From the NCBI GenBank assembly GCA_964450885.1, contig CAYVFE010000001.1, positions 160,489-224,488 of the forward strand: a stretch of DNA of 64,000 nt. The letters run 5' to 3'. Origin of the DNA: an uncultured Gammaproteobacteria bacterium (lineage in GTDB: Bacteria > Patescibacteriota > Microgenomatia > Levybacterales > GWA1-39-11). The notes under the pieces were generated by a model. It was not told the origin of the DNA, did no database searches, and worked only from the letters and a program-made list of their open reading frames with translations. Made by a program: the position numbers and the translations under genes. Below, piece by piece: positions 14,315 through 30,308 of the stretch. The first letter of the stretch is position 1. Each line of letters starts with the position of its first letter.

Positions 14315-14355
14315 AAGTTATTGATAATTATAAATTGAAAGTTTAAATTAGATAA

Positions 14356-14811: not shown

Positions 14812-14835
14812 AAAAAATATTAAAATAAAATAATT

Positions 14836-16749
14836 ATGGGAAAAATAATAGGAATAGATTTAGGAACAACTAATTCGTGCATGGCCGTCATGGAAGGCGG
14901 TAGCCCTAAGGTGATCTTTAATTCTGAAGGGAAAAATACAACACCCTCAGTCGTTGATCCAGTAGACGGGGTAGTAGGAGATGTTGCAAAACGTCAGATG
15001 GTTCTAAAGCCAGAGCGCGTTATCTACTCTGTAAAGCGTTTGATGGGTAGACGTTTTAAGGACAAGGAAGTAAAGGAGGCCGCAGAATTTTTACCTTATA
15101 AAATAGTTGACGGAAAAAATGGGATGGCTGCCGTTGAAGTCGATGGAAAAACATACACCCCACAGGAAATATCAGCAAAAGTACTACAGAAATTAAAGAA
15201 AGACGCAGAAGACTATCTGGGAGACAAAGTAACACAGGCAGTTATTACTGTTCCCGCATATTTTGATGATGCGCAGCGACAAGCTACAAAACAAGCTGGA
15301 GAAATTGCGGGTCTTGAAGTTTTGAGAATCATAAATGAGCCAACTGCAGCGGCGCTTGCCTATGGTATGGATAAAAAACATGCTCATACTATTGCAGTTT
15401 ACGACCTGGGAGGAGGAACTTTTGATATTTCGATTTTAGAGTTAGGCGAAGGCGTTTATGAGGTGAAGGCTACAAATGGAGACACTCATTTAGGAGGAGA
15501 CGATTTTGATCAGGTGATAATAGATTATCTGGCTGATGAATTCAAAAAGGAAAATAGTGTTGACCTAAAAGCTGATAAGCAGGCTTTGCAAAGACTTAAA
15601 GAGGCAGCTGAAAAAGCAAAGATTGAACTTTCTTCCTCAAAAGAAGTTGATATCAATCAGCCATTTATTACGATGTCTGCAAGCGGCCCGCTGCATTTGA
15701 CTACAAAATTATCACGTTCTAAGTACGAATCTTTAGTTTCGGATCTTGTCAAAAAGACTTTTGACCCCGTAAAACAGGCTCTCAAAGATGCAGGCGTAGA
15801 TGCTTCAAAGATAGATGAGGTAATCATGGTCGGAGGAATGACCAGAATGCCAAAGATCGTTGAGGAAGTAAGTAGCTTTTTCGGGAAAGAACCCAATAAG
15901 AGCGTTAACCCAGATGAGGTTGTTGCTGTGGGTGCTGCAGTACAGGCTGGAGTTTTGGGAGGGGATGTAAAAGACGTTCTGCTTCTTGATGTTACTCCGC
16001 TTACGCTAAGTATTGAGACATTGGGAGCCGTTGCTACACCTCTTATTGAGAAGAATTCTACGATTCCAACTAAAAAATCTCAGGTATTCTCAACCGCTGC
16101 TGACAACCAGACACAGGTGGATATTCATATTTTGCAGGGTGAACGGCCGATGGCTGCTGACAACAAGGATTTGGGAAGATTTATTCTTGATGGTATTCCG
16201 CCAGCTCCGCGTGGCGTACCACAAATCGAAGTTACATTTGATATCGATGCGTCAGGAATACTCTCCGTTACCGCAAAAGATAAGGCAACAGGAAAAGAAC
16301 AAAGTATAAAAATTACCGGGTCCACTGGGCTTTCTGACGAAGAGGTAGATAAGATGACAAAAGAGGCTGAGATGAATGCGGAGGAGGACAAGAAGAAAAA
16401 AGAGCTTATTGATGCAAAAAATAGCGCCGAGGCTTTGATAATAACCGCAGAGAAAAGCATGAAGGATATAAAGGATCTGCCCGAAGATGATAAGAAAGGA
16501 CTTGAGGATCTGATTGAAGAACTTAGAAAGACGCTTGAGGGCGAAAGCAAGGATGAAATTGAGGAAAAGACACAAAAACTCTCAGAAGCGCTATCAAAGG
16601 TGGGCGAAAAGATGTATTCCCAGCAGGGAGAGCAGTCTTCGGATGAAAAGTCCGATAATGAAGATGAAAAAAGCGGAGAAAAGGATGAAGACAAGAAAGA
16701 CAAAGAGAATGTTGAAGAAGGCGAAGTCGTAGACGACAACAAAAACTAA
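14836..16749 (+). CDS. dnaK: Chaperone DnaK (Hsp70)
   Basis: [19 protein letters not shown] and acidic C-terminal tail. 637 aa. Confidence 0.97.
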
Positions 16750-16801
16750 CAATTTCCCCTAAAGCGTTGTGTTGATTCCTATTGCATGATACGATGTTAT
16801 T

Positions 16802-17098
16802 ATGCAAGATTGTGCTCCAAATGAGATATTGACAGACTTTGGATGTATCCCTGATGATCCTGTTGGATTCGTGCAAAAGTTCTATGGAATAGGTCTGGGA
16901 TTTATAGGTATGGTCGCGCTGATTTTTATCATAATTGGTGGGTATAACATAATGACCTCTCAGGGTGATCCTACAAAGCTTGCGACCGGAAAATCCTTCA
17001 TTACATATTCGATAATTGGGGTATTATTGGCGATTTTTGGTTTTGTTTTCATAGAAGTGGTTACTGGAGATATATTAAGAATTCCAGGATTTAACTAA
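16802..17098 (+). CDS. TrbC/VirB2-like pilin-type small membrane protein
   Basis: 98 aa. Two long hydrophobic helices (GIGLGFIGMVALIFIIIGG and IIGVLLAIFGFVFIEVV) separated by a short polar loop, with Cys pair C4/C15 near the N-terminus. Immediately upstream of the VirB6-like gene. Confidence 0.5.
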   Translation: MQDCAPNEILTDFGCIPDDPVGFVQKFYGIGLGFIGMVALIFIIIGGYNIMTSQGDPTKLATGKSFITYSIIGVLLAIFGFVFIEVVTGDILRIPGFN

Positions 17099-17100
17099 AG

Positions 17101-19494
17101 ATGAAGAAATTACTGCCCATAATTTGTTCTATTCTATTTGCTGCATTTGCTTTTTTCGCAGTAGTAAATACTTCTAATGCTCAGGTTATCGGCACAACTC
17201 CAACTCCCGAATCCCCATCAGGGGACTGGAAGAAAGATCAAGAGGTAACCTTTATAGGTAAGACCGCTGCCCGATCAAACGAATTTTTGCAATGGACGCT
17301 CCAGAATTATCAATGGATAAGTATCACTCCGGAAAATCCTACAAATCCTCTTGCTGAGTTCTGGGGTGTTATAAGAAATATTGTCTTGGCGCTTCTTGTG
17401 CTTTTTATTCTAGCAGCTGCATTTGTGATTATTATTACCCGTGGTCAGAACATAACCATAATGCGGTTTATCCCACGATTTATAATAATCATTCTTCTGA
17501 TTGTATTTTCTTTTGCTATCCTTAGATTTTTGTATCAATTTTTCGACGTAATCCAGGGATTTTTCCTTCGGACTACTGATCCTGCAGGAGGACCCGACAG
17601 ATTTATAGAGCCGAAAGACCTTTTATATATAGCTTTTGATTATAAGAGCTTCATAGGATTTAGGCAGGTTGGGATGGAGTTTGATGAGTCTGCTTATATA
17701 TCGCTTCTTTTGGTGAAAATTACTGCGGTTACATATTACGTGATGACAGGAATTCTTTTGATCAGAAAAATCATACTATGGTTTTTCATAATTATCTCAC
17801 CTGTTTTCCCATTGTTGCTATTTTTCAGGCCTCTAAGAAATACTGCAAAGATATGGGTGGGCGAATTTTTTAGGTGGCTTCTTTACGCTCCTCTGTTTGC
17901 AATATTCTTGCATGGGCTTGTCGTAATGTGGAGGGATAGGATTCCTTTGTCTTTTGATTTTTCTCAGGTTGGAACACAGATTTATCCTACTGCTATAAAT
18001 ATTTTACTAGGAGGTCCGGGACAGCAGATAGGGCTCAATAATTCTGTTAACTTTCGTGATACATTCGCACTTTATGTTGTAGCGCTTCTTATGCTTTGGG
18101 TGGTCATTCTTCTCCCCTGGCTATTGTTGCAGATATTTTTGGATTATCTAAATAATCTTTCGCTCTCTGAGACTCCTTTTTATCAAAGAATAGCCCAGAC
18201 GAATATCCCATTTATAAATAGGCCGATTGGTAAGGGACCAGATACGCCACCATCCGTTCCACCACAGGGTCCAGCATCAGCAGGGCTCGCCCGTAGTCTT
18301 CCATTTATGAACAAACGTGCTATGCAGATTCCTGTTAAGAAAGTTACAAGTGCCGACAATAACAAAAACATCTCATCTCGTCAAAATATCTCTAATATTT
18401 CATCTGAGACAAGCGAGGTAGTAAGACTTGCGAACCTTTCGGTTCCCAAGATGAGAGATATTGCCCGCATGGAATCGGCATCTATTACTAAGAATCAGTC
18501 AGTCCAAAACCAAAAGACGGAGATAACTAACAAATTGACGCAGATATCATCTCCCGCTTCTGCGCCGGCGATTGAGCGCGAAAAGATCACCACCATAAAA
18601 GAAAAGCTTGTACAGATGCAGCAAAAAGGAGATCCAGTCGCAAGTTCTATATTAAGTGCTTCAAGATTAGGATCGAGAGGAGCAATGACATCGGAGATGA
18701 TCAAAAACAAACTGGCGGTAACTTTGCAGCATATTGCAAGTCCTTCGATGGCTTTGACTGCGCAAGAGAGGCAGAAGGTGCAAGATATACGACAAGAGCT
18801 TTTGTCAGCTCAACAACAAGGCAATCCGCTTGCGACATATATCTTGGATATGAGTGAGAAAGTAAGTGGGGAAAACGTAAATGAAAAGGAGAAGCAGTCA
18901 CTTATAGATAGAGTAAAAGAGAAACTTTCAGCAGAAAAACAGAAAGGAAACAAACTTGCCGAAAAAGTGCTTCCAGCAGAAGGTGCAACAACGATCGCTG
19001 CAGCATCTCTTCCTAGTGTCAATCGAGTTCAGCAGGTAAGTCTGGATGAGTACGAAGAAGTCAAAAATATTTGGAAAGAAAACTATACGAATATGGAACC
19101 CCCTGCGCCTCTTGATGGTAAGACACTGACCAAGGAAGAATGGATCAATAATGATATTCAAAAAATAGATGAAACTATAAATCTACTTAGTTCTCCCGAC
19201 CAGACACAGGTACAAAAGGGCATGGAAATGGTTTCCGACATATTGCCGTTTCTACTCATAGGAGGTTTCTCAAAGGCTGAGGTCATTGCCTATCTTAAAG
19301 CAAAGCAAGCTGCCGGCAAAGAAGTCGCAGGGCAGGTTGAACAGAAGAGGAATGAGGAGGATACACTTCTTGAGAATAAGCCTAAGAAGGAAGAAAATTC
19401 AGCTGAGATGACGATGAAAAGAGAGTTGCCAATAGAAAACGCCCAGGAAAATAGTGGAAATCCTGATAAAGATCCATCAACAAATGCATCTTAG
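17101..19494 (+). CDS. VirB6/TrbL-like polytopic membrane protein with long C-terminal repeat-containing tail
   Basis: Signal peptide, about 6 TM helices and a roughly 400 aa hydrophilic tail. The tail has three imperfect repeats (EKLVQMQQKGDPVASSIL / QELLSAQQQGNPLATYIL / KEKLSAEKQKGNKLAEKVL). 2 nt gap after the pilin-like gene. Confidence 0.55.
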   Translation: MKKLLPIICSILFAAFAFFAVVNTSNAQVIGTTPTPESPSGDWKKDQEVTFIGKTAARSNEFLQWTLQNYQWISITPENPTNPLAEFWGVIRNIVLALLVLFILAAAFVIIITRGQNITIMRFIPRFIIIILLIVFSFAILRFLYQFFDVIQGFFLRTTDPAGGPDRFIEPKDLLYIAFDYKSFIGFRQVGMEFDESAYISLLLVKITAVTYYVMTGILLIRKIILWFFIIISPVFPLLLFFRPLRNTAKIWVGEFFRWLLYAPLFAIFLHGLVVMWRDRIPLSFDFSQVGTQIYPTAINILLGGPGQQIGLNNSVNFRDTFALYVVALLMLWVVILLPWLLLQIFLDYLNNLSLSETPFYQRIAQTNIPFINRPIGKGPDTPPSVPPQGPASAGLARSLPFMNKRAMQIPVKKVTSADNNKNISSRQNISNISSETSEVVRLANLSVPKMRDIARMESASITKNQSVQNQKTEITNKLTQISSPASAPAIEREKITTIKEKLVQMQQKGDPVASSILSASRLGSRGAMTSEMIKNKLAVTLQHIASPSMALTAQERQKVQDIRQELLSAQQQGNPLATYILDMSEKVSGENVNEKEKQSLIDRVKEKLSAEKQKGNKLAEKVLPAEGATTIAAASLPSVNRVQQVSLDEYEEVKNIWKENYTNMEPPAPLDGKTLTKEEWINNDIQKIDETINLLSSPDQTQVQKGMEMVSDILPFLLIGGFSKAEVIAYLKAKQAAGKEVAGQVEQKRNEEDTLLENKPKKEENSAEMTMKRELPIENAQENSGNPDKDPSTNAS

Positions 19495-19533
19495 CATTTG
19501 TTGAAGTAGTTGCTATTTGTCTATAATAAAAAT

Positions 19534-22443
19534 ATGTTTGGAGATTTATTTAAGAAAAAACAATACGAGCAAAATCCGGCGGCTCCTCAAAATCCGCAAG
19601 GACCATTTGCGCCTAATAATCAGTATCCTGTACAGCAAATGCAGCAGGGGCAAATGATGGGACAGCCTCAACAGATGCCAGCGCAAATGATGCCAAATCA
19701 AGGGATTGCTGGGTCGACGATGGATCCTGGAAAAAGGCAGAATGTAAATGCTCTTTCCCATTTAGATTCGCGCTCCAATCAGATACTTCAGCAGGCTCAG
19801 AGCGAAGCGAAGAAGTATCAGCATCCAGCGATAGAGCCAGATTTACTGCTTCTCTCTCTCACCTATGACAGAGAGATATATAAACTTTTGCAAAAGCATG
19901 AAGTGGATGTAGCATCCCTTGCAAAAGAAATAGAGTCCAAGCAGCAGGTAGGAACTGCGACAACTCCTCCTATTCTAAGTGAAAGTACTCAGCGTATTTT
20001 TGATGAATCTTATAAATTCGCTACAAAAAGAGCTTCAAGTTTTATTTCTCCGGAGGATTTGCTTTTGGCAGTCTTTTCATCGGAGGCGGCCCAAGCTCTT
20101 TTGACCTCAAAAGGAATCGATAAAAAAGATTTTGAGCAGACACTGGAAAAAGATTCAAAATTCAAGACCGGTAAAAAAAGCGTTATTGAGGAATATGGTA
20201 TAGATTTGACAGCTGAGGCTGGGAGCGGAAAGCTGGATCCAGTCGTCGGACGCGAGAAAGAAATAGAGAGGACGATTCATATATTGCTTCGAAGGAGCAA
20301 GAATAACCCAATCCTTATTGGAGAGGCGGGAGTAGGTAAAACTGCAATAGTTGAAGCACTCGCTCAGTTAATCGTAAAAAAGCAGGTCCCTAAGGATTTG
20401 CAGGATAAGAAAATAATTCAACTCGATCTAACATCGCTCATTGCGGGTGCATCTCATAGAGGGGAATTTGAGGAGAGGTTGAAAAACGTAATAAAAGAGG
20501 TGATGCTTTCTGAAGGAAGACTGCTGCTTTTCATCGATGAGATCCATACATTAATAGGTGCCGGAACTACTGATGGTGCGATGGATGCCTCAAATATTAT
20601 AAAGCCATATCTCGCGAGAGGGCAGTTGCAGCTGATCGGTACGACAACGACAGCAGAGTATAGAAAATATTTCGAGAAAGATAAAGCATTTCAAAGAAGA
20701 TTTCAGGCGATCATCATAGATGAGCCATCGATAGAGACCGCTATTGAGATGATGAAGGTTCTTCAGGTAAAGTATGAGAAATTTCATAACGTTACCATAA
20801 CGCCCGAAGCTATAGAGTATTCGGTTAAACTTTCTAAAAAGTATATTGGAGAACGATATTTACCTGATAAATCAATCGATCTTATAGACGAAGCGTCTGC
20901 TGAGGTAAAACTTATGGCTGCGGAGGGGAAGCGAAAAGATACTCAGGTGGTTCGATCTGACATAGAAAAAGTCGTAAGTGCTTGGACAGGAATACCCATA
21001 ACAAAGCTTACAGAGGATGAAAGCAAGAAGCTGTTAGGTCTTGAAGATCTGATCCATAAAAGACTTATAGATCAGGAGGAAGCTGTAAAATCCGTCTCAG
21101 AGGCGGTTAGACGCGGGCGTATAGGACTTGCCTCAGCAAATCGCCCGATTGCATCTTTTATATTTCTAGGCCCTACAGGAGTCGGTAAGACAGAGCTTGC
21201 AAAAACGCTTGCAGAAATTTTATTCGGCCGTGATGATGCGATGGTGAGGCTTGATATGTCTGAGTATATGGAAAAGCATGAGGTTGCAAAGCTTATCGGT
21301 GCACCCCCTGGGTACGTCGGTTATGAGGAAGGCGGACAGCTGACAGAGGCGGTTAGGCAAAAACCTTATTCTATAGTTCTGCTTGATGAGGTTGAGAAAG
21401 CACACCCTGACGTCTTTAATATTCTTTTGCAGCTTCTTGAGGATGGAAGACTTACAGATAATAAAGGAAATACTATATCATTTAAAAATACAATAGTTAT
21501 AGCTACATCAAATATTGGTAGTAAGCTTATCCAAGAGACTTTGACTACTCAAAAAGAAGTAAAGGCGCTATCTGTTGCTGCAGATAAAGATAGTAAAAAT
21601 GATAGGCAGAATGGTCAGGTTCAATCTGCTCAGCCGCAAGTTTCCCAGCCTCAATCCTCTGCTCCAAGCGACCAAAAGAAACCAGAGATGACAGAGGAGG
21701 AAAAAATCGATGAGAAAGTATTCAAAGAGCTCTCAAAAAATCTTATGGATGAGTTGATAAAGTTTTTCAGACCAGAGCTTATAAATCGTTTTGATGGGGT
21801 CGCAATATTTAAGCCACTAACAGAAAAGTATATGAATGCGATCGCCAAGTTAGGCATAAAAAATACCCAGAAATTACTCAAAGAACAGGGATTTGATCTT
21901 CAAATAACCGATAAGGCTATTGAAGTTCTGGCAAAGGATGGATTTGATCCCGTTTACGGAGCAAGACCCTTAAGACGTCTTATCCAAACAGTTATAGAAA
22001 ACCCGATAAGCATCGAGATAATCGGAAAAAAATTTATCCAAGGAGATATCATAATTGTTGATTATGATGAAGTTACTAAGAATTTTACCTTCAAAAAATC
22101 GCCTAATTCAAAAAGTTTGCAAAATAATTCTACGCAGCCAGGAGGAATTCCACAAAATCCTATAGATCCGAATATAGCTCCAGGTGATGCTTTGAATGTG
22201 AATGGTCAAATGCAAGGCCAACCAAATATGCAAAATGACATGAATGCAAATAATGGTTATCAGCAGGTTGGTCCGATACAAAATGGACAGGCGCAAATGC
22301 CACAACAGCAAAACGGTGGCATGATAGTAGATCCGGCAGCGCCAATTACCCAAGATCCTGCTCCCGCTCCTCCTCCTGTTGACCCGACAACGGGAGAGGC
22401 TATGACGATGGCAGTTAACGGAAATAATCAGAATCAATTATGA
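19534..22443 (+). CDS. ClpC/ClpB-family Hsp100 AAA+ unfoldase (two AAA+ modules, no M-domain, no ClpP-binding loop) with Gln/Asn/Pro-rich N- and C-terminal extensions
   Basis: Start taken at ATG 19534 (MFGDLF). The 19510 ORF start is TTG. Clp_N repeats. D1 has GEAGVGKTA and LLLFIDEIHTL. D2 has FLGPTGVGKTE and SIVLLDEVEKAHPDVFNILLQ. There is no coiled-coil insertion between DLIDEA and SAWTGIPI, and no [IVL]GF tripeptide. Confidence 0.85.
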   Translation: MFGDLFKKKQYEQNPAAPQNPQGPFAPNNQYPVQQMQQGQMMGQPQQMPAQMMPNQGIAGSTMDPGKRQNVNALSHLDSRSNQILQQAQSEAKKYQHPAIEPDLLLLSLTYDREIYKLLQKHEVDVASLAKEIESKQQVGTATTPPILSESTQRIFDESYKFATKRASSFISPEDLLLAVFSSEAAQALLTSKGIDKKDFEQTLEKDSKFKTGKKSVIEEYGIDLTAEAGSGKLDPVVGREKEIERTIHILLRRSKNNPILIGEAGVGKTAIVEALAQLIVKKQVPKDLQDKKIIQLDLTSLIAGASHRGEFEERLKNVIKEVMLSEGRLLLFIDEIHTLIGAGTTDGAMDASNIIKPYLARGQLQLIGTTTTAEYRKYFEKDKAFQRRFQAIIIDEPSIETAIEMMKVLQVKYEKFHNVTITPEAIEYSVKLSKKYIGERYLPDKSIDLIDEASAEVKLMAAEGKRKDTQVVRSDIEKVVSAWTGIPITKLTEDESKKLLGLEDLIHKRLIDQEEAVKSVSEAVRRGRIGLASANRPIASFIFLGPTGVGKTELAKTLAEILFGRDDAMVRLDMSEYMEKHEVAKLIGAPPGYVGYEEGGQLTEAVRQKPYSIVLLDEVEKAHPDVFNILLQLLEDGRLTDNKGNTISFKNTIVIATSNIGSKLIQETLTTQKEVKALSVAADKDSKNDRQNGQVQSAQPQVSQPQSSAPSDQKKPEMTEEEKIDEKVFKELSKNLMDELIKFFRPELINRFDGVAIFKPLTEKYMNAIAKLGIKNTQKLLKEQGFDLQITDKAIEVLAKDGFDPVYGARPLRRLIQTVIENPISIEIIGKKFIQGDIIIVDYDEVTKNFTFKKSPNSKSLQNNSTQPGGIPQNPIDPNIAPGDALNVNGQMQGQPNMQNDMNANNGYQQVGPIQNGQAQMPQQQNGGMIVDPAAPITQDPAPAPPPVDPTTGEAMTMAVNGNNQNQL

Positions 22444-22895
22444 TAAGAAATCTTTCAATAAAAAATAAAAAGTTGATAATAGTTTTGATATTTATAGCTG
22501 TTCTTATTCCTATAATAATATTTATTACAGCTTCAGTAGCTAAGTCAAATTCAAAAATTGATGACATAGCACCTACTCCTATCGATGAGATTCCAAGTGA
22601 GGAGGATGAAAATGCTTACGAATTAGAGCTTCTCGTAGGTGTTCCTACTATCATACCCGGGACTGATATAGAGCTCAAATTAGTCTCAACAAGTAATCAG
22701 CCTGCTGATTGTTTCGATTGTATAGCTTTGACAATAGTCGAGGTGCAAAGCGCAGGAGAAGTGGCTGTCTGGGACTATGCCTGCGGAGGATTTTCGGGGG
22801 AGTGTAATTATCAATTCAAAAAATTTGGATATGTAATCGAAGCCTTAGACTTGAAGATTGATTCGATGGTAGTAAAAGTTTATCCGGAAGAGTGA
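22440..22895 (+). CDS. Small N-terminally anchored protein with four Cys
   Basis: 151 aa, N-terminal TM helix IIVLIFIAVLIPIIIFI, Cys in CFDC...C..C context. ATGA overlaps on both sides. Confidence 0.45.
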   Translation: MIRNLSIKNKKLIIVLIFIAVLIPIIIFITASVAKSNSKIDDIAPTPIDEIPSEEDENAYELELLVGVPTIIPGTDIELKLVSTSNQPADCFDCIALTIVEVQSAGEVAVWDYACGGFSGECNYQFKKFGYVIEALDLKIDSMVVKVYPEE

Positions 22896-25800
22896 TGAAG
22901 AATAATATCCCCCAACCCGTGATATTTGGGATCATCGGGCTAGTTCTGTTTGCGATAGCCTTTTTCGCAATCCTTATTAGTTTGAATAATAATCCCAAAG
23001 CGAATGTGTCGATTTCCGGAGATGATACTATCCGGGAAATTACTGTCAAATATCCAGAGAGCGGATATATAGCCAGATCTACAAATGAGAATGCGGCAAG
23101 AGAGTATTTAGCTGAAAGCGGAATTGTAGGCGAGTCATATATAGATAATTCGGAGATAGCAAGGTCGGTTGAAGACGAAGATGATAGTAGTAGTTCAAGC
23201 GAACATAACATTCAAGTTCCTGCCAGTCATTATTTCTTTCAACAGTATATCGATGGAGTAGCAGTTCAGGACTCTATTTTAGGAGTCCATGTTCGCAATA
23301 ACAATGAAGTGTATTATGTTTCTGGAAATGCGCTGGTTACGTTTGATGTCGAAAGTGAGAATATTACTGTTGAAGAGGCCGTAAGTAAGGCGGTTGATGA
23401 AGCAAAAAAAGAAGTAGGTGAAACAGTAGATATGGAGCTGTCTACCGCAGAAAAAGTGATCTATAACAGTAAACTAATAGGTCTGTCTAGCGACAATAGA
23501 AATATCCCGACAGTAAAAGTGACAGTGAGCACTGAGGCAAATTCTTTAAATTTTGCCAAAGAGTATTTTATATCCCTTATAGATGGGGAAAAACTTGAAG
23601 AAAGAACACTCATTTTTCACGCACTCAACAGAACTATATTTGACTGTGGCGGATCCCAAACTTCGTGTTCGCAGGTTAGAAGCGAAGGAGCGCCTCCATA
23701 TGGAGCCAGGGATATAGATGACGGATATAATTACTTTGGCGATACATATAATTTCTATTTCAATAACTACCAAAGAGATAGTTATGACGGCAATGGTGCC
23801 CAGCTAAGAGGATATATGAACTATTATACGGGGAGTCCTAATGCAGGATGGGATTCGAAAGCTGGCAGGATGATCTATAGCTCGAATATGGTGACCCCAG
23901 ATATCACCGGACATGAGCTGACTCATGCAGTAACATCTTCTACAGCAGGGCTAATATACAACGCTCAATCAGGAGCCATAAATGAGGGGATGTCTGATGT
24001 GTTCGGGTGGGCTGTTGATCCTAACGATTGGACTTTGGGTGAAGGGTCTGCTTTGGGGGTCATAAGATCTTTAAGTAATCCCCCCTCCCATAATCAACCA
24101 GATAGACTTTTCGCATCTAACTATTGGTGCAGTTCAGCTGATAACTACGGTGTACATCAGAATAGCGGAATAATAAATAAAACCTTCTATCTATTAGTAG
24201 AAGGTGGCTCATTTAATACATGTAACGTATCTTCGATCGGCAAAGATAGAGCGCTGGCGATATTCTATCGCGCTTTAACCCGATATCTGACTCCGTCTTC
24301 TAATCTAAAAAATCTATATGATTCCTTACTACAATCATGTAACGATTTGTATGCAGGTGATGCGGGAGTTTGTGAGCAGGTAGATATTGCTTCACAGGCA
24401 ACAGAGATAGATCAACAGCCTGCTGGAAGCCAGTCAGGACCTGTGTGTTCTGGAAATTCTGGACAACCTCCTAAGTGCTCTGGAAATCAGGGAGGAACGA
24501 TTCCGACATCAGTACCGAACCAGCCAACATTAACACCAACGTCTGGAGCTCAGGTGAGATATTATATTTCAGGTAGGATATATCAAGATAATAACGGTAA
24601 TACCCAATATGATACCAGTGACACTCCATTGAGCAATCAGTCGGTGGGTCTTTCTGGGAGTTTTACAGACACCGTCAGTACGCTTTCTGATGGGACATTT
24701 ATTTTCGATAACCTTTTTAACGGAACATTCAATGTTTCTTATGATAGTAGTGCAAGAAATGATATCTCGCTTTCCCAGACGCAGAGTGCGGTGAGCGTCA
24801 ATTTTATCGTGACCAAGGATCCGTTAAATCCGACGCCAACTATAGTAGCTGGTCCTACATCCGTTCCTACGACTCCAACCCCTGCTGCATCCACCCCTAC
24901 CCCTGTATCTGCTACCACGATCCCTACTCCTACAACACCGATCCTATACACATGTGAGTATGATCCGAAATGTGCCACTGGAAAAAAGAATATACAGCTA
25001 TGTCCGCTTGTATGCACAGAGAAATTTGGCGATGGGGGAGGCGGGCGTGGAGGCTCGTCAATTCCTCCAGCACCTACGAGTACTCCTGGTGGCGGATCAG
25101 TGCCAACGTCTACTCCGCAGCCTGGTCAGGTGGCTACATCTACTCCTATTACTGGAAATGGGCAAGGTGCACCCTTGGATGTAGGGAGTCTCGTAAATGA
25201 TGTTTCGGAATCAAATATCAGAAACTATATGCAAAGTCTTGTTGATGATGATGATATCGCGGGGGATGACCAGTCACAAACAAGATACACCTCTACGAAT
25301 GGGAATCAGACAGAGGCAAATTATATATACAATACCCTTCAAGGTTTTGGATTAAACGTGGAGTATCAGCAATTTAATTTTTCCGGCAATACTACAAGAA
25401 ATATAATCGGGAAAGTTCCTGGGAAAGATGCAAATAGAGTTTATTTAGTTACAGCTCATATGGACTCGACATCCGGCTCGACTGATCCTGCTCCAGGCGC
25501 AGACGATAATGCCAGTGGGACAGTAGCAGTTATGGAGGCAGCAAGGGTACTAAAGACCATGCAGGACAAGTTGAATGTTTCGCTAGAATTTATTTTGTTC
25601 TCCGGGGAAGAGCAAGGGCTTTATGGGAGTTCGTATTATGCAGGAAATATTCCTTCAGGGAAAAAAATAGAGGGAGTTATAAATTTGGATATGATAGGAA
25701 ACGATTCAGGGAGCGCGTGTGTGAATTTTGGATATAAAAATTATAATGGTGGAGATATCATGTCAAACAAGATAATAGAGATGATCCAGAAGTATAATAT

Positions 25801-26014
25801 AAATCTTGGGGGATCATCTGTCTCCACATCAAATGCCAGAAGTGATCATGCTCCATTCTGGAGTAGAGGAATTCCAGCAATCTTTGGACATGAATGTACA
25901 TTTAGCTCTGTATACCATAGTACTAACGACAAGATCGAATTTATCAATTTTGCACAAATAACAAATACTGCAAAAGGAGTAGTTGCTGCGGTTGCAGAAT
26001 TATCAACACAATGA
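22892..26014 (+). CDS. Secreted fusion protease: M4 thermolysin-like endopeptidase (FTP+PepSY propeptide) - Cna-B/SdrD-like beta-sandwich - Pro/Thr linker - M28 aminopeptidase
   Basis: Signal anchor. FTP pattern HYFFQQYIDGVAV. HExxH in TGHELTHAV, third zinc ligand in NEGMSDVFG. M28 ligand pattern AHMDS, GADDNASG, GEEQGLYGS, NLDMIG and HSTNDKIEFIN. Confidence 0.8.
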   Translation: MMKNNIPQPVIFGIIGLVLFAIAFFAILISLNNNPKANVSISGDDTIREITVKYPESGYIARSTNENAAREYLAESGIVGESYIDNSEIARSVEDEDDSSSSSEHNIQVPASHYFFQQYIDGVAVQDSILGVHVRNNNEVYYVSGNALVTFDVESENITVEEAVSKAVDEAKKEVGETVDMELSTAEKVIYNSKLIGLSSDNRNIPTVKVTVSTEANSLNFAKEYFISLIDGEKLEERTLIFHALNRTIFDCGGSQTSCSQVRSEGAPPYGARDIDDGYNYFGDTYNFYFNNYQRDSYDGNGAQLRGYMNYYTGSPNAGWDSKAGRMIYSSNMVTPDITGHELTHAVTSSTAGLIYNAQSGAINEGMSDVFGWAVDPNDWTLGEGSALGVIRSLSNPPSHNQPDRLFASNYWCSSADNYGVHQNSGIINKTFYLLVEGGSFNTCNVSSIGKDRALAIFYRALTRYLTPSSNLKNLYDSLLQSCNDLYAGDAGVCEQVDIASQATEIDQQPAGSQSGPVCSGNSGQPPKCSGNQGGTIPTSVPNQPTLTPTSGAQVRYYISGRIYQDNNGNTQYDTSDTPLSNQSVGLSGSFTDTVSTLSDGTFIFDNLFNGTFNVSYDSSARNDISLSQTQSAVSVNFIVTKDPLNPTPTIVAGPTSVPTTPTPAASTPTPVSATTIPTPTTPILYTCEYDPKCATGKKNIQLCPLVCTEKFGDGGGGRGGSSIPPAPTSTPGGGSVPTSTPQPGQVATSTPITGNGQGAPLDVGSLVNDVSESNIRNYMQSLVDDDDIAGDDQSQTRYTSTNGNQTEANYIYNTLQGFGLNVEYQQFNFSGNTTRNIIGKVPGKDANRVYLVTAHMDSTSGSTDPAPGADDNASGTVAVMEAARVLKTMQDKLNVSLEFILFSGEEQGLYGSSYYAGNIPSGKKIEGVINLDMIGNDSGSACVNFGYKNYNGGDIMSNKIIEMIQKYNINLGGSSVSTSNARSDHAPFWSRGIPAIFGHECTFSSVYHSTNDKIEFINFAQITNTAKGVVAAVAELSTQ

Positions 26015-26646
26015 AAAAAATACTACTGATATTAACTCTATTTCTACTGGCATTTTTATTTTTTAGAGGAGAGGGGTATGCACAAGAGAATGGAGGAATA
26101 CTTGTTGTTACAGTTTATGAGACTAGAGAGGATATAGATATATTATTTGAAAATAGCCTTAGGGTCCTCGAGTACCTAGAGGGCGTCGATGTAGAGGAGC
26201 CGATATTTTTATCTCTTGTGAGTGATCAGCAGATAAAAAATCTACAAGACAACAATCTAGATCCACAAGTTATTGATGATAATGCTGATCTTGATTCCTA
26301 CATTCTTTTGTATAATCCTTTAGAAAATCAGGGAGAGAAGCTTTCTGGTTTTGGTGAACCTATAGAAATATCCAAACACTATACGCTTCTCAAGCTATCT
26401 CCTGGTCAGGAATTCTCCCATGAGGGAGAAGGTGTTGCTTTTTTCGATATTCCATTTCAAGAGGTTGTTGTTACTCCTCCGCTTAGAACGAAAACAGCAA
26501 CTGAAGCTATAGATGTAGCTACTGAAAATGAGCAAAGCATAAATCCTGTAATATTTGTAATTTTAGCGATAGTTATAGTAGGTTTGGGAATAGGGGCATT
26601 TTTCTTCATAAGAAATAAAAGAAACGGTGATTATCAGCCTCAATAA
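26011..26646 (+). CDS. Hypothetical exported protein with C-terminal TM anchor
   Basis: Signal peptide MKKILLILTLFLLAFLFF. C-terminal VIFVILAIVIVGLGIGAFFFIRNKRNG. ATGA overlap with the protease gene. Confidence 0.45.
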   Translation: MKKILLILTLFLLAFLFFRGEGYAQENGGILVVTVYETREDIDILFENSLRVLEYLEGVDVEEPIFLSLVSDQQIKNLQDNNLDPQVIDDNADLDSYILLYNPLENQGEKLSGFGEPIEISKHYTLLKLSPGQEFSHEGEGVAFFDIPFQEVVVTPPLRTKTATEAIDVATENEQSINPVIFVILAIVIVGLGIGAFFFIRNKRNGDYQPQ

Positions 26647-26690
26647 TTTCTAGCAATCGACTTGCTTTTTTGCTAAAATAAAGGCTTACT

Positions 26691-27557
26691 ATGGCAAAAG
26701 ATTTTTATGATGTTTTGGGCGTGAAAAAAGGGGCAAGTCCTGAGGAGCTTAAAAAAGCCTATAGGAAGCTTGCTGTCGAGTTTCATCCTGACAAGAACAA
26801 ATCGAAAGAGGCAGAAGGCAAATTCAAGGAGATAAACGAAGCCTATGAAGTGCTTTCAAATCCTGCGAAGCGCCAAAATTATGATCAATTCGGATCTAGC
26901 GGAGCTCAAGGCAGCGGACCTTTTTCGGGTGGAAATCCATTTGGTGGCGGAGGTGGTCAAGGTCCATTCAAATACTATTATTCTTCAAGCGGGGGAGGCT
27001 CACAGGGATTTGATTTCGGTGGGACAGATCCTTTCGATATTTTCGAACAATTTTTTGGTGGGGCTTCTCCTTTCGGTCGGCAAAAACCGTCATATTCTCT
27101 TGCTATCGATTTTATGGATGCGGTAAAGGGAGTAACAAAAAGAATCGACTTGAATGGAAAAAAAAGAGATATAAAAATTCCAGCCGGAATAAACTCTGGG
27201 CAAAGAATTAGATTTGATGATTTTGATATTGTAATTGATGTAAGACCTGACGATTTTTTTGAGCGCCGTGGCGCAGATGTATTCTCCGAAGAAGATGTGC
27301 CATTTACTATGGCGATTCTGGGGGGAGTAAAGGAAATAAGGTCGTTAGAAGGTAAGGTTAAGCTTAAGATTCCAGGAGGAACCCAGCCGGATACGTTGAT
27401 AAGGATTAAAGATAAGGGAATAAAGGAGATCAATGGAAGAGGGCATGGTAGCCACTTTGTAAGAGTAAAGGTGGAGATACCAAATAAGATAAATTCCAAG
27501 CAGAAAAAACTCATTGAGGAATTTGAGCAGGAGAGCTCAAAAAAGGGTTGGTTCTAA
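26691..27557 (+). CDS. dnaJ: DnaJ-family co-chaperone lacking the zinc-finger domain (CbpA/class II-like)
   Basis: J-domain DFYDVLGV...HPDKN, Gly/Phe-rich segment and C-terminal beta-sandwich domains. No CxxCxGxG repeats. Confidence 0.85.
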
Positions 27558-27607: not shown

Positions 27608-27961
27608 ATGAAAACTGCCCTGATGTATCCATTTGAGCTATTAATATTTTGGTATCATGATATTTGTCTGGGTGCGATAGATTATTTTACCCGCCTAAAT
27701 TCGTATATTTTGCAGGTTCTCTCTACGCCACTGCTTTTGAGAACATTCTTCAAGCCTCTCAAGAACGAGTACAGAAAGGGGCTCGTACTGTTCTCGATAG
27801 TCTTTGGAATTCTCGTGAAGACTTTTTTGATCGGATTTTCACTGACGGTCCTGTTGGTCCTTATAGTCATTGAGCTTTTTATTGTGGCGCTACTTTTTTT
27901 GTCGCCAATAATCTTAATCTATTTATTATATGCAGGAGAAAATATTTTTCAATTTATATAG
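27608..27961 (+). CDS. Small hypothetical membrane protein
   Basis: 117 aa with 3 hydrophobic helices. Overlaps the 5' end of the next gene in another frame. Confidence 0.3.
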   Translation: MKTALMYPFELLIFWYHDICLGAIDYFTRLNSYILQVLSTPLLLRTFFKPLKNEYRKGLVLFSIVFGILVKTFLIGFSLTVLLVLIVIELFIVALLFLSPIILIYLLYAGENIFQFI

Positions 27962-30308
27962 ATTTTTAACTAGCAAGGAGGGTGTTCTATTCAGAGCCTT
28001 ACTTTTCATTGTCTTGACACTTGTTCTCCTTCTGTTTGTTGATGAGCCCTCCGTTTTGTTAAGGATACTGCCTTTATATCTTATCTTTTTGCTACAGGAA
28101 TTATTCATTCATAAAAAACTTGAAAGAATTCATCCGGAAAAAAATGTTAACGACGCAAATGACTTAATTGACGCAACGGTATTTGATATAAGGTCAGAAC
28201 TGTCTTCTTCCAAGAGTGCTTTCACTCTTGTCGAGTCATTACTTATATCAAAGAAAGGGAAATTTATTCGGGAGCGGATAAGCCCCGAGCTTAAATTGAC
28301 TGATGCAAATATAACTAAAGATGCACTTTTGGATAAAGCTTCTGCTTTAGTGAAGGCATTAGAGGGAAAATATATTACATCTTTGGATATTATTACAGCC
28401 TACCTGTTGCTACAGGAGGAAAGTGCACGAATTCTTCAAGACAATAATTTGAATGAAAAAGATTTGCTTACTATTTTGTACTGGGCAAGGAAAAAATTTC
28501 ATATAGGTGAGGTAGAGCCTCCAGCATTTCTGTTTCATGGGAGTGGTGCATTTGATTCTTTGGTTTACGGGTGGACGCCGGAAACAAAAAATTATACATC
28601 TGATTTCACCACCGAGGTGTTAAGCCTTGATTACGAACCCAAAATAATTGGCCGCGAAAAAGACTATAGAGAATTTGTAGAAAGTCTTTCAAAAGGCTCT
28701 GCCAGCAATGTCCTTCTTGTGGGAGATCCAGGAGTTGGCAAGACTACCCTTGTTATGAAATTCGCCCACGATGCTTATAAGGGACTTCTTACAAAAAAAC
28801 TTAAGAATAAAAGAATATATTTTCTTTTTGTAGACAGATTGTTATCTGGTGCAGGCGACAAGGGGGAGATAGAAAGTCGAATCGGAAACATATTCACCGA
28901 AGTCTCACACTCCGGGAATATAATCGTTTTTATCGAGAATATAGAAAATATTTTTGGCGGCGGCGGCGGATTTGAGTTCGATATGTCGGGCGCTATACAA
29001 GCATATCTTGAAAGTAACAGGGTGCAAATCATCGGAACTATTAATCCTCAGGCTTACAAGGATTCTATCGCAACAAAACCTTCGGTACAATCTCTATTTT
29101 CAGAGATAGATTTGGATGCACCTGATCCGAAAATAGCTACATTCATGCTTATAGAAGAAGTAAATATAAGAGAAAAAATGTCAAAAGCGATAGTTACATA
29201 TGGCGCTATAAAAGAAATTGTAGAATCATCAGATCTTTATTCTCCTGATTCTTCTCTTCCCGGATCCGCTGTCAAGCTATTGGAGGATGTAATGGTCAGG
29301 AGTTTTAATTCAGGAAAGAATTTAATTACACGACATGAGGTTTCTGAGATGATAAAGGATAAAACGGGGGTTAAATTGTCTGCGCCTACAGAAGAAGAGA
29401 AGAATACGTTGCTTGCTATGGAGGAGACTTTGCACAAGAGTCTTATCGGCCAAGACGAAGCGGTTTCTTCGGTCTCCAACGCATTAAGACGACTTAGAAG
29501 TGGACTTAGAAAAAAGCAAGGCCCGATTGCATCCTTTCTATTTCTGGGCCCGACAGGAGTAGGTAAAACGACCACTGCAAAACTTTTAGCAAGGGAATAT
29601 TTTGGTAGTGAAGACCGGATGATAAGGGTCGATATGAGTGAGTACCAAACGCAAGATAGTATAAAAAAACTATTAGGCGAGATGCCTGGGGAACAAAGTT
29701 TCAAGAATTCTTTTGTAGACAAAATATCAGAGACCCCTTTTTCCATAGTTTTACTGGATGAATTCGAGAAAGCGCATCCTCAGCTTCTTGACGTTTTTCT
29801 ACAGGTTCTTGACGAGGGATTTGTCACAAATAATAAAGGTAAAAAAATATCGTTTACAAATGCGATAATAATCGCAACTTCAAATGCCGGAAGTCAATTT
29901 ATAAGAGAGAAAATAGAGTCAGGAGGCAGCGCTGTAAAGGATGAATTGATAGATTATATTTTGACAAAAAGTATATTCAAGCCGGAGCTTGTCAACCGTT
30001 TTGATGACGTTGTAGTATTCCATCCGCTATCAAAAGAGCAAGTTGTAAAAATTACAGAGTTAATGCTAACAGATTTAAAGGATAAGTTGATGGAACAATT
30101 TATTGATATAAGTTTTTCTGATAACGCGATAGACAAAATTTCTATAGAATCATTTGACCAAGATTTTGGAGCCAGAAATGTGAGAAGATATATAGAAGAG
30201 AATATTGAAAATCTCGTATCAAGAATGATACTTGAGGGTAAAATCAGCAAGGGTGAGAGATTTATTGTTGGCGTTGGAGATAACGGAGATTTTATTATAG
30301 AGCAGTAA
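27930..30308 (+). CDS. Membrane-anchored ClpC-like Hsp100 AAA+ ATPase with degenerate first AAA+ module
   Basis: Two N-terminal TM helices (LFRALLFIVLTLVLLLFV, LRILPLYLIFLLQELFI). D1 has Walker A GDPGVGKTT but the Walker B region reads IIVFIENIEN, where canonical members have IDEIH. The position normally holding ERRFQ reads QSLFSE. D2 is intact with FLGPTGVGKTT and SIVLLDEFEKAHP. Confidence 0.8.
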   Translation: MQEKIFFNLYRFLTSKEGVLFRALLFIVLTLVLLLFVDEPSVLLRILPLYLIFLLQELFIHKKLERIHPEKNVNDANDLIDATVFDIRSELSSSKSAFTLVESLLISKKGKFIRERISPELKLTDANITKDALLDKASALVKALEGKYITSLDIITAYLLLQEESARILQDNNLNEKDLLTILYWARKKFHIGEVEPPAFLFHGSGAFDSLVYGWTPETKNYTSDFTTEVLSLDYEPKIIGREKDYREFVESLSKGSASNVLLVGDPGVGKTTLVMKFAHDAYKGLLTKKLKNKRIYFLFVDRLLSGAGDKGEIESRIGNIFTEVSHSGNIIVFIENIENIFGGGGGFEFDMSGAIQAYLESNRVQIIGTINPQAYKDSIATKPSVQSLFSEIDLDAPDPKIATFMLIEEVNIREKMSKAIVTYGAIKEIVESSDLYSPDSSLPGSAVKLLEDVMVRSFNSGKNLITRHEVSEMIKDKTGVKLSAPTEEEKNTLLAMEETLHKSLIGQDEAVSSVSNALRRLRSGLRKKQGPIASFLFLGPTGVGKTTTAKLLAREYFGSEDRMIRVDMSEYQTQDSIKKLLGEMPGEQSFKNSFVDKISETPFSIVLLDEFEKAHPQLLDVFLQVLDEGFVTNNKGKKISFTNAIIIATSNAGSQFIREKIESGGSAVKDELIDYILTKSIFKPELVNRFDDVVVFHPLSKEQVVKITELMLTDLKDKLMEQFIDISFSDNAIDKISIESFDQDFGARNVRRYIEENIENLVSRMILEGKISKGERFIVGVGDNGDFIIEQ

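Follow-up and report, generated by a model that had tools for sequence, protein, structure and literature searches.

A previously undescribed T4SS-derived module with a putative Hsp100 partner beside dnaK in Levybacteria

Why do genes resembling parts of a T4SS lie between dnaK and dnaJ, and do they belong together? The question arises in the window, a stretch of 64,000 nucleotides from the genome of an uncultured member of the Levybacteria, in the candidate phyla radiation. Its plus strand carries an hrcA-grpE-dnaK heat-shock operon (13592-16749; hrcA 13592-14314, grpE 14356-14811, dnaK 14836-16749), recognized from ORF layout and the Pfam families of orthologues, which adjoins the module and lies outside it. 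As the initial annotation had stated, the ORF layout places six co-directional genes between the end of dnaK (16749) and the start of dnaJ (26691), g1 to g6, at 16802-17098, 17101-19494, 19510-22443, 22440-22895, 22892-26014 and 26011-26646. Gene order and a CIRCE-overlapped hrcA promoter match the Gram-positive hrcA-grpE-dnaK-dnaJ operon. The window clade differs in that about 9.9 kb of unrelated genes with their own promoter separate dnaK from the downstream dnaJ, and the window dnaJ (26691-27557, plus strand) encodes a J domain and a C-terminal domain but no zinc finger. A T4SS-derived module is indeed present, and it is previously undescribed. We regard it as an evenly balanced proposition that the core unites a VirB2-like pilin with an extended VirB6-like platform and an Hsp100, Clp3, either dedicated or recruited, with a protease cassette in many lineages and a mechanism that we infer below.

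The first gene, g1 (16802-17098, plus strand), encodes a VirB2-like T4SS_pilin protein of 98 aa with an acidic N-terminal tail containing two conserved Cys, two hydrophobic helices and a Lys-rich loop; unlike characterized VirB2 proteins, it has no signal peptide. It scores just under the cut-offs of PF18895 (24.2 bits against 26.6) and NF045849 (38.8 against 40), and PF18895 matches 67 of 77 orthologues, which bears out the VirB2-like assignment first proposed. After a gap of 2 nt, as reported earlier, follows g2 (17101-19494, plus strand; 797 aa). Its signal peptide precedes a VirB6-fold domain of five helices (aa ~40-352); a linker rich in Pro then leads to a region of helical repeats (aa ~430-625), and the C-terminal domain (aa ~630-745) is conserved. 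The window protein has no match to Pfam TrbL; its fold upholds the earlier VirB6-like assignment. Its closest known counterparts are VirB6/TrwI of R388 and extended VirB6 proteins, among them DotA, TraG of F and the VirB6 paralogues of Rickettsiales. In contrast to these, the appended repeat and C-terminal domain, orphans with no structural neighbour, are common only to g2 and the neighbouring Hsp100.

This Hsp100, Clp3 (g3, 19534-22443, plus strand), most likely starts at ATG 19534 (MFGDLFKKK...) instead of TTG 19510, because its N-terminus is conserved (nearly every orthologue examined has MFGNLF..KK) and a TATAAT (19522-19527) lies 6 nt upstream. The Pfam architecture (Clp_N+AAA+AAA_lid_9+AAA_2+ClpB_D2-small) agrees with the initial Hsp100 assignment, and among PDB sequences ClpB and ClpC match best (about E-200). 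The MFGDLF peptide is followed by a Q/P-rich linker, Clp_N, D1, D2 and a Q/N/P-rich tail. Clp3 shares with ClpB, ClpC and ClpA the Clp_N domain, two AAA+ rings with intact Walker motifs and an intact D2 pore loop, GYVG. It differs from them in its low-complexity tails and conserved MFGNLF N-terminus, and in a D1 pore loop with His in place of Tyr (33 of 39 aligned orthologues have His). A ClpP loop of the IGF/IGL type ([ILVM]G[FLM]) occurs in none of the 39, and a long low-complexity loop sits at the corresponding position of Clp3. The M domain, which Hsp100 proteins need for coupling to DnaK or MecA, is missing from the window protein and from nearly all 39; one orthologue, at locus L050, has a long low-complexity insertion at the M-domain junction. 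These features set Clp3 apart from a standard ClpB, ClpC or ClpA. Like ClpV (TssH), it would be an Hsp100 specialized for a secretion-related structure instead of general proteostasis, and neither of the two couples to ClpP. However, Clp3 scores 674 bits against TIGR03345 (ClpV), below the 885-bit cut-off, it has no M domain, its partner would be a VirB6-like membrane protein instead of a sheath, and T6SS genes are absent.

Relatives of g2 occur in 148 species-level genomes, and 80 species-level Levybacteria loci were compared. The pilin gene is directly upstream of g2 in 72 of 73 loci, with a median gap of 3 nt, and Clp3 directly downstream in 65 of 68, so the trio is almost always contiguous; L082 has the order Clp3-pilins-g2, and L064 has g2 without either partner. 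Since the arrangement recurs in about 80 species-level genomes, it is far from chance. The usual order is dnaK-dnaJ-pilin-g2-Hsp100 (45 loci). The window order is found in 25 loci that form one monophyletic clade, and therefore dnaJ moved once: what had been described as a module sitting between dnaK and dnaJ reflects a relocated dnaJ and not an insertion. The module tree is congruent with gene order, and from these comparisons the module is vertically inherited across the Levybacteria. Such conservation at one locus across 148 species effectively refutes the view that an insertion into the dnaK operon, either a defence island or what is left of an integrated conjugative element, gave rise to the block; the congruent tree also speaks against it. 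In its favour, the pilin narrowly misses the cut-off of an NCBIfam mycoplasma ICE pilin-like model, and the PADLOC models DolB and PDC-M37B pick up the Clp ATPase domains, at the generic AAA+ level only. On the other side, PADLOC gives nothing for the non-ATPase members, GC content is even across the block, and no integrase, relaxase, tRNA or direct-repeat boundary lies around it.

Adjacency alone says little about partnership, because the flanking genes for MetRS, TatD and glycosyltransferases are also syntenic across this lineage. The genes may then be neighbours and not partners: Clp3 and the second Hsp100 downstream (Clp2) would be the lineage's heat-shock Hsp100s, retained beside dnaK and dnaJ as happens in many bacteria, the pilin/VirB6-like pair and the cassette would have unrelated surface functions, and low rearrangement plus selection for a highly expressed neighbourhood would keep them adjacent. 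We consider this unlikely, though by no means negligible. It fits the synteny of unrelated flanking genes, the separate promoter-like elements before the pilin, Clp3 and dnaJ genes, and the grouping of hsp20, groES/EL and the second Hsp100 in the same region. The nearest outgroups of Clp3, moreover, belong to a broader CPR Hsp100 clade that has the N-terminal M.G.LF motif and the pore-loop His in common with it; given these outgroups and its likely own promoter, Clp3 may be a housekeeping disaggregase. The loss of the M domain argues against a classical DnaK-coupled ClpB function, and the trio stays intact when detached from dnaK (L066, where the context is unrelated, L089 and L090); distant relatives, too, retain the adjacency at sites away from dnaK.

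Domain sharing also speaks against mere neighbourhood. Besides g2 orthologues, an HMM of the g2 tail repeat matches only adjacent Clp3 proteins, in whose tails it finds 1-5 copies at 14 loci (E 1e-13 to 3e-42), and a single further Clp, P0135; the window Clp3 itself does not have the repeat. P0135 carries the repeat and the whole g2 C-terminal domain as a C-terminal fusion (BLASTP E 1e-23). The earlier pairing of the Hsp100 with the VirB6-like protein thereby gained independent support. In a blind test, representatives of the Clp3 family were picked by sequence alone and their contexts then inspected. A g2 homologue lies directly upstream of P0123 (HMM E 2e-113); near P0125 there is one at 1.3 kb, with an IS in between (E 4e-96), and P0126 is followed after 29 nt by a T4SS_pilin gene. 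In no case is dnaK nearby. P0127 has no g2 within 8 kb. The coupling of the module parts is argued on genomic evidence throughout.

The closest described system is the MPF-FATA-like T4SS of Patescibacteria, which likewise combines T4SS_pilin/VirB2-like pilins with a VirB6 homologue and is chromosomal, relaxase-free and found in monoderm CPR cells (PMC12102498). The module differs in lying beside dnaK, not dnaA, and in a neighbourhood without VirB4, TrsD or PrgI, where the sole adjacent ATPase is an Hsp100; Clp and dnaK go unmentioned in that study. VirB4, VirB11 and VirD4 are all absent among the window ORFs scanned with Pfam, as the initial annotation had noted. A split canonical T4SS, in which the pilin and VirB6-like protein are ordinary MPF-FATA-like parts, VirB4, TrsD and PrgI lie elsewhere (near dnaA) and Clp3 does not help to power the system, seems quite unlikely to us. 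VirB4 is reported in most Patescibacteria and in about 45% of the listed Levybacteria; VirB6 homologues are described as 'scarce' in Microgenomatia, with extreme sequence divergence suggested (PMC12102498), and such divergence may have let them escape detection. Yet VirB4 is patchy in Levybacteria (20 yes, 24 no; Table S1, PMC12102498) and undetected in three of the five module-bearing genomes in that table, set against a module present in 148 species; this argument is weakened because MAGs are incomplete. The domain sharing with Clp3 also speaks against a split system. The original statement that the block matches no described system holds for Pfam, NCBIfam, PADLOC and the literature searched. 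A pilin and VirB6-like platform paired with an unusual Hsp100, and often a secreted protease, appears to be a combination not described before.

For the preferred core of pilin, platform and Clp3, the following working may be proposed. The VirB6-like protein would oligomerize within the membrane, as happens in the stalks of T4SSs, and its helical tail of 440 residues would project into the cytoplasm, where it could hold a Clp3 hexamer. Clp3 would supply ATP-driven pulling, the role of VirB4 in canonical T4SSs, and would extract the two-helix pilin or load it onto the platform, or else recycle it; either direction of work, assembly or recycling, is conceivable. Cells that often lack VirB4 would in this way gain a short filament, or a conduit, at their surface. 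Sec would export the protease, which might then be captured at the surface via a Cys motif.

How is the block expressed? The initial annotation had proposed a single HrcA/CIRCE heat-shock operon from hrcA to dnaJ, in which the six middle genes would make up an apparatus for envelope export or proteolysis induced by stress. In its favour, every gene points the same way, and the junctions among the last four are tight or overlap; those described as uniformly ATGA-joined are so at g3/g4 and g5/g6, while g4/g5 overlap by GTGA, which shrinks to 1 nt if ATG 22895 is the g5 start. The reported lack of a terminator after dnaK is confirmed, and terminator-like sites after dnaK or dnaJ are absent in 47 of 50 loci, so that read-through from dnaK is possible. 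The only CIRCE upstream of the block (TTAGCAGTC-N9-TAGTGCTAA; 13515-13551, plus strand) overlaps the hrcA promoter, TTGACA-17-TATATT. In relatives, CIRCE occurs before hrcA and hsp20 only, and no locus has one within the block or immediately ahead of it. A separate predicted promoter of leaderless type serves the pilin gene (16767-16795, plus strand): TTGTGT, 17 nt, TGaTACGAT and 6 nt to the ATG. The spacing between the end of an extended -10 (TGnTAnnnT) and the pilin ATG is exactly 6 nt in 35 of 77 loci and 2-12 nt in 54, and other operon-first genes of the window have the same architecture. Heat induction of the whole block via CIRCE is therefore unsupported. The Clp3 and dnaJ genes each have a -10 element as well; since the module owns promoters, its heat-shock link is positional and not a shared operator. 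With the module away from the dnaK operon in three loci, the position of dnaJ variable and the protease cassette optional, a single operon is very unlikely. A perfect 11-bp hairpin without a T tract spans the g2 stop codon (19477-19504, plus strand). The weak hairpin described before dnaJ is real (AGCAA-TCGAC-TTGCT) but lies slightly upstream of its original placement, at 26652-26666 with a T run to 26671; an extended -10, TGcTAAAAT, follows 11 nt before the dnaJ ATG (whole element 26652-26679, plus strand).

The remaining genes are less constant, and the 'six-gene module' first described reduces to a conserved core of pilin, g2 and Hsp100. The g4 gene (22440-22895, plus strand) encodes an N-terminally anchored 4-Cys protein, a type-specific partner of M4 proteases; in loci with S8 proteases, an I9-propeptide-like protein occupies its position. 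The g5 product (22892-26014, plus strand) is, as proposed, a signal-anchored M4-M28 fusion by Pfam and motifs, with catalytic motifs intact (HELTH at residue 341, NEGMSD at 364); because of its N-terminal signal anchor it needs no cytoplasmic unfoldase. It contains a shared Cys-rich motif, CEYDPKCATGKKNIQLCPLVC (24953-25015), internal in the window protein and C-terminal in most relatives. Exactly one protein with this motif is found in 40 loci, always just after Clp3, and the catalytic domains are unrelated (21 S8, 11 M4, others). By these sequence criteria g4 and g5 are an exchangeable protease cassette (S8, M4 or other) marked by the motif; the cassette is absent from 13 loci. The g6 gene (26011-26646, plus strand), for a secreted protein of 211 aa with a C-terminal anchor, is lineage-restricted, present in the window, L019 and L020 only. 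Conversely, the gene set first described missed a conserved downstream pair on the plus strand (27608-30308), a small membrane protein (27608-27961) and an overlapping membrane-anchored second Hsp100 (27930-30308) with a degenerate D1 and no aromatic pore loops, which follows Clp3 in 33 of 45 loci. The same region also groups hsp20 and groES/EL with this second Hsp100.

The open reading frame (ORF) map of the window places six plus-strand genes between dnaK and dnaJ, as the initial annotation had stated. Downstream of hrcA (13592-14314), grpE (14356-14811) and dnaK (14836-16749) lie genes for a small pilin-like protein (g1, 16802-17098), a VirB6-like membrane protein (g2, 17101-19494), an Hsp100 ATPase (g3, here called Clp3, first mapped at 19510-22443), a small protein with four cysteines (g4, 22440-22895), a protease (g5, 22892-26014) and a C-terminally anchored protein (g6, 26011-26646), followed by dnaJ (26691-27557), all on the plus strand. 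The most likely start of Clp3 is the ATG at 19534; from there the protein begins MFGDLFKKK, and nearly all orthologues examined carry MFGNLF..KK. The annotated 2-nt gap between the first two genes is borne out; of the ATGA overlaps reported farther on, those of g3/g4 and g5/g6 are present, and the g4/g5 junction reads GTGA instead. No terminator-like site was found after dnaK, again as annotated, and the weak hairpin described before dnaJ exists with its T run, at the corrected position 26652-26671. HrcA is short (240 aa), and DnaJ (288 aa) has a J domain and a C-terminal domain without a zinc-finger domain; both sizes are kept in relatives.

One genome per GTDB species was scanned, which gave g2 relatives in 148 genomes, and the window's proteins were mapped with tblastn onto the best 80 loci among them (L-numbers below denote loci in related genomes). 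Gene order is nearly invariant: hrcA-grpE-dnaK-(dnaJ)-pilin-g2-Clp3-[variable]-(dnaJ)-small membrane protein-second Hsp100. The pilin is directly upstream of g2 in 72 of 73 loci, Clp3 is the next gene downstream of g2 in 65 of 68 (two more are borderline, and only L064 is without Clp3), and dnaK or dnaJ lies upstream of the module in 70 of 73. Directly before the pilin gene, 45 loci have dnaJ and 25 have dnaK, the arrangement of the window. When the g2 membrane domains are placed on a neighbour-joining tree, the loci with dnaK next to the pilin group in a single clade nested among the others. The window thus shows no module inserted between dnaK and dnaJ; in one lineage, dnaJ has come to lie behind a cluster that is older. 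The six genes were also viewed as one block. They are better described as a composite of a core (pilin, g2 and Clp3) and a variable cassette, which is missing from 13 loci; there, the gene for the small membrane protein, with that of the second Hsp100 after it, comes directly after Clp3. A mobile element or defence island was considered and rejected: GC content is uniform, with no step along the window, there is no integrase, relaxase or tRNA (none in a scan of the window), and inheritance is vertical. A PADLOC scan returned only generic AAA+ matches, and an Rfam scan of the window returned no element. Many of the species-representative metagenome-assembled genomes (MAGs) with this Levybacteria-specific cluster (L009, L011, L012, L014 and others) are labelled 'uncultured Gammaproteobacteria bacterium', evidently a placeholder mislabel.

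The first two proteins had been assigned to the VirB2 and VirB6 families, with profile HMMs suggested as a check; by these, g1 scores just under the curated cut-offs and g2 has no match to TrbL. At 98 aa, with two hydrophobic helices (residues ~28-50 and ~67-88), a short basic, Lys-rich loop (MTSQGDPTKLATGKSF) and an acidic N-tail, g1 has the VirB2 layout. It scores just below the cut-offs of PF18895 (T4SS_pilin; E 3.7e-5, 24.2 bits against 26.6) and of NF045849, the NCBIfam pilin-like conjugal-transfer model (38.8 bits against 40). PF18895 is matched by 67 of 77 g1 orthologues (E < 1e-3, best 2.5e-8), with no competing family; a search of the PDB with the pilin sequence profile gave only noise. 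A cleaved N-terminal signal peptide was found neither in g1 nor in most orthologues. Three residues of the ORF precede its first conserved Cys; the predicted promoter ends 6 nt before the same ATG. A deep-branching clade (L049, L052, L055-L057, L062, L063, L071, L073, L081) has a second T4SS_pilin paralogue, upstream of hrcA and divergent from it on the minus strand; it is the clade in which the tails of Clp3 carry a repeat of g2.

The g2 protein of the window has no Pfam or NCBIfam match, including TrbL (PF04610) and TrbL_3 (PF19590), and a minority of its homologues have weak or faint precomputed matches to these two families. Its sequence profile likewise gave only noise against the PDB, and structural comparison alone gave a result. 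In an AlphaFold2 model (69 homologues, pLDDT 72), five long membrane helices are followed by a helical C-terminal half, and the top five Foldseek matches are all TrwI/VirB6 of the R388 type IV secretion system (T4SS). By this comparison, g2 has a polytopic membrane domain with the VirB6 fold. It has more than 650 homologues, which, where named, belong to Candidatus Levybacteria. A perfect 11-bp hairpin (19477-19504, TCAACAAATGC / GCATTTGTTGA) spans the g2 stop codon without a T tract and may act in RNA stability or attenuation.

Clp3 is a class I Hsp100 (Clp_N, AAA, AAA_lid_9, AAA_2 and ClpB_D2-small domains), in accord with its annotation as a ClpC/ClpB-family double-ring protein, and its Walker motifs have the class I form (GEAGVGKT/LLFIDE and GPTGVGKT/IVLLDE). 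Among 39 orthologues, the D2 pore loop GYVG is kept in 38, 33 have His in place of the D1 pore-loop Tyr, and the N- and C-terminal tails are of low complexity; those of the window's protein are rich in Q, N and P. The main alternative to a function with g2 is that Clp3 is simply the disaggregase of the lineage, located next to dnaK. Its outgroups do have the look of a general clade of CPR Hsp100s, with the N-terminal peptide and the pore-loop His in common and, in some, a short M domain. Coupling of ClpB to DnaK is mediated by the M domain. Clp3 has no such domain when aligned to ClpB: its residues ~468-477 abut ClpB residue 528. Nearly all of the 39 orthologues share this junction, L050 having a long low-complexity insertion instead. 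Clp3 differs from the ClpB disaggregase also in its TIGR03346 score (887 bits, below the cut-off of 1232). ClpP is docked by IGF/IGL loops; no loop of this kind ([ILVM]G[FLM]) was found in any of the 39 orthologues, and at the docking site the D2 loop of the window's Clp3 has 70 residues and is rich in Q, S and P. We propose that neither DnaK nor ClpP could be a partner of Clp3 by the classical routes. A ClpV is no better match: Clp3 scores below the cut-off of TIGR03345, and neither TssB/TssC nor other T6SS core families were found in the window, as had been annotated.

Several observations tie Clp3 to g2 instead. Their adjacency has outlasted more than one independent rearrangement: dnaJ has relocated, in L066 the trio lies amid transporters and glycosidases with no dnaK, and in L082 the order is Clp3-pilins-g2. 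In a blind test, Clp3 was compared with 1.84 billion representative proteins, and the contexts of its nearest family members were inspected. Of these representatives, P0123 has a g2 homologue directly upstream (HMM E 2e-113), P0125 has one 1.3 kb downstream, with an IS200-type transposase between and ATP-synthase genes upstream, and P0126 has a T4SS_pilin gene 29 nt downstream; P0127 has nothing within 8 kb, and the contig of P0128 is only 4 kb. In the contexts inspected, no dnaK lay near any of these representatives.

The two proteins also have a domain in common. The helical repeat in the tail of g2 (aa 430-625) was made into an HMM, which in 14 loci matches the neighbouring Clp3 at its C-terminal tail, with one to five copies and full-sequence E-values of 1e-13 to 3e-42. 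When all loci are scanned in six frames, the matches of this HMM are confined to g2 orthologues, these 14 Clp3 proteins and one further Clp. The latter, P0135 (L088, 10001-12493), is a stand-alone Clp D1-D2 ATPase encoded amid thiamine-transport genes, with neither a pilin nor g2 close by; both the g2 repeat and the g2 C-terminal domain are fused to its own C-terminus (BLASTP E 1e-23, 34% identity over 175 residues). The repeat HMM finds no copy in the window's own Clp3. Domain sharing of this Rosetta-stone type argues for a physical or pathway link. The lengths of g2 and Clp3 also co-vary (Spearman 0.43, p 0.008), a correlation that was set aside because it is confounded by phylogeny. We consider it likely, on these comparisons, that g2 and Clp3 work together. 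The common repeat would place the g2 tail in the cytoplasm. VirB6 of Agrobacterium has its N-terminus outside, five transmembrane segments and its C-terminus inside, and the cytoplasmic C-terminus proposed for g2 agrees with this topology.

The cassette after Clp3 varies in content at a fixed position. In the window, g5 is a signal-anchored M4-M28 fusion protease, as annotated, with the catalytic motifs of both domains intact (HELTH at 341 and NEGMSD at 364 for M4; the ligand motifs TAHMDS, GADDNASG, GEEQG, NLDMIG and SDHAPF for M28) and domain E-values in Pfam of 3e-11 to 4.5e-42; g4 and g6 are anchored proteins and match no family. The 38 large ORFs in this slot comprise 21 S8 subtilases, 11 M4 peptidases and 2 UvrD-like proteins, the remainder being without identity. 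In L054 (18007-20964) and L055 (18116-21052), the slot is occupied not by a protease but by a fusion of a UvrD-type helicase with a PD-(D/E)XK nuclease. The small anchored protein upstream of the protease is of the four-Cys type, as in the window, with M4 enzymes and of a subtilisin-propeptide-like type with S8 enzymes. Slot proteins (S8, M4 and others) end in the Cys-rich motif Y.C..DP.C......IQLC.L.CTP regardless of catalytic class. The motif occurs exactly once per 22-kb locus in 40 loci, always just past Clp3 (slot proteins of L001-L086). The window's sole copy in 64 kb (24953-25015) is internal to g5, since the M28 domain has been added after it. Non-orthologous replacement at a fixed position, together with the common motif, indicates a functional 'cargo slot', and the motif resembles a sorting or attachment signal. 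Threading of g5 through g2 by Clp3 was considered and is unlikely, the N-terminal signal anchor and propeptide being typical of Sec export. g5 is therefore probably exported by Sec, and any link to the module would be extracellular, perhaps through the Cys motif and the conserved Cys pair of the pilin.

A second Hsp100 (27930-30308) is part of the conserved cluster. It is always preceded and overlapped by a gene for a small membrane protein (pair 27608-30308), and the two lie downstream of Clp3 in 33 of 45 loci. The protein has two N-terminal transmembrane helices and no M domain. Its D1 is degenerate (Walker B is IVFIEN, and catalytic residues are absent from the family consensus); D2 is intact, without an aromatic pore loop.

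To our knowledge, all characterised type IV secretion machines need VirB4-family ATPases. In the R388 machine, VirB6 forms the base of the stalk and is thought to receive pilins, and VirB4 dislocates VirB2 from the membrane. VirB4, VirB11 and VirD4 are absent from the ORFs scanned in the window, in line with the initial annotation, and no VirB4 was found within ±10 kb of the module in relatives. The T4SS of Patescibacteria has been described as VirB4-centred and often near dnaA, with VirB6 homologues scarce in Microgenomatia, and Clp and dnaK go unmentioned (Quinonero-Coronel et al., PMC12102498). According to entries in Table S1 of that study, 20 of 44 Levybacteria genomes have VirB4 and 24 do not; three of the five module-bearing genomes among the entries are VirB4-negative, which is soft evidence because the genomes are draft MAGs. 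Patchy VirB4 in these entries against a near-universal module suggests that the module does not depend on VirB4. The claim that no described system fits holds up: a VirB2/VirB6 pair coupled to an Hsp100 is absent from Pfam, NCBIfam, PADLOC and the literature searched, which likewise describes no association of Clp/Hsp100 with VirB6 in CPR bacteria. The parts are of known kinds; what is new is their combination, the private domain common to g2 and Clp3, and the tagged cargo slot.

From comparative genomics, a mechanism can be proposed. Clp3 would be tethered to, or act on, the cytoplasmic tail of the VirB6-like platform and would provide the mechanical work for extraction, loading or recycling of pilins in cells from which VirB4 is often absent. 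We hold this motor role tentatively, as somewhat less probable than its opposite, and regard the broader statement that g2 and Clp3 are partners with Clp3 in a motor role as evenly balanced. An extended version, which we think improbable, is a VirB4-independent, Hsp100-powered descendant of a T4SS. The Clp3 hexamer would be docked to an oligomer of the VirB6-like protein, at its cytoplasmic repeat domain, and ATP-driven threading would extract, load or recycle the leaderless VirB2-like pilin, or feed unfolded substrates. A surface filament would display Cys-tagged proteases for episymbiotic feeding or attack, and the membrane-anchored second Hsp100, with no pore loop, would be a regulator or anchor. 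If the tie between g2 and Clp3 is functional, it would be the first recruitment of a Clp/Hsp100 motor to T4SS parts, comparable to ClpV in the T6SS, and g2 would be a candidate for the VirB6 rarely detected in the Microgenomatia survey. The picture of the T4SS as VirB4-dependent would change with a lineage-wide module that has retained no parts of it but the pilin and the VirB6 platform. The g2 tail repeat, the Clp3 N-terminal peptide and the Cys motif would, given such a tie, become concrete targets in uncultured, host-dependent CPR bacteria for questions of how surface structures are built and proteases deployed. The idea would surprise T4SS and AAA+ specialists and is directly testable.

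The whole block had been thought heat-inducible through CIRCE. The window has two CIRCE operators (0.03 expected by chance): TTAGCAGTC-N9-TAGTGCTAA at 13525-13551, overlapping a near-consensus promoter before hrcA, and another at 11172-11198 before hsp20. In every locus CIRCE occurs only before hrcA and hsp20; none, at ≤3 mismatches, precedes the pilin, Clp3, dnaJ or the second Hsp100 in the window or any relative locus. The groES-groEL genes are usually core members of the HrcA regulon; those of the window (2085-4065) have no CIRCE upstream at ≤3 mismatches. Directly before the pilin start codon, an extended -10 element (TGnTAnnnT, typically aTGCTACgaTtaa) is conserved; its end is exactly 6 nt from the ATG in 35 of 77 loci and 2-12 nt from it in 54. 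The predicted pilin promoter of the window is at 16767-16801 (TTGTGT-17-TGaTACGAT-6-ATG, by sequence motif). The initial annotation had itself named separation of the block from dnaK by a terminator and a promoter as a point against its reading; the promoter motifs raise that doubt, and CIRCE control of the whole block is an unsupported inference. Terminator-like sites upstream of the pilin, between it and dnaK or dnaJ, were found in three of 50 loci; with terminators this rare, read-through is possible, and only the promoter motifs argue for transcriptional separation of the block.

Clp3 and dnaJ have -10 elements of their own, TATAAT 6 nt before the ATG at 19534 and TGcTAAAAT 11 nt before the dnaJ ATG, past the hairpin and T run. 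Many operon-first genes of the window lack a Shine-Dalgarno sequence and carry a -10 or extended -10 hexamer whose end lies 5-9 nt upstream of the ATG. By motif geometry, leaderless-type starts are predicted at 16802, 19534, 31349, 37245, 39961, 56160, 58847 and 61729 and, on the minus strand, for 10257-11135, 11714-13117, 13151-13486 and 38776-39912. Leaderless transcription seems common in this genome, so that co-directional genes without terminators need not form one operon, and such gene strings in CPR bacteria are to be taken for single operons only with caution. One of these starts belongs to an AAA+ protein (58847-59989) with a Lon-type lid and no protease domain. Elsewhere in the window, a sortase gene (50870-51427, within 45950-52152) lies amid large secreted proteins without a family match (45950-47248, 47344-49671 and 51487-52152, minus strand), which may represent a sortase-dependent surface structure.
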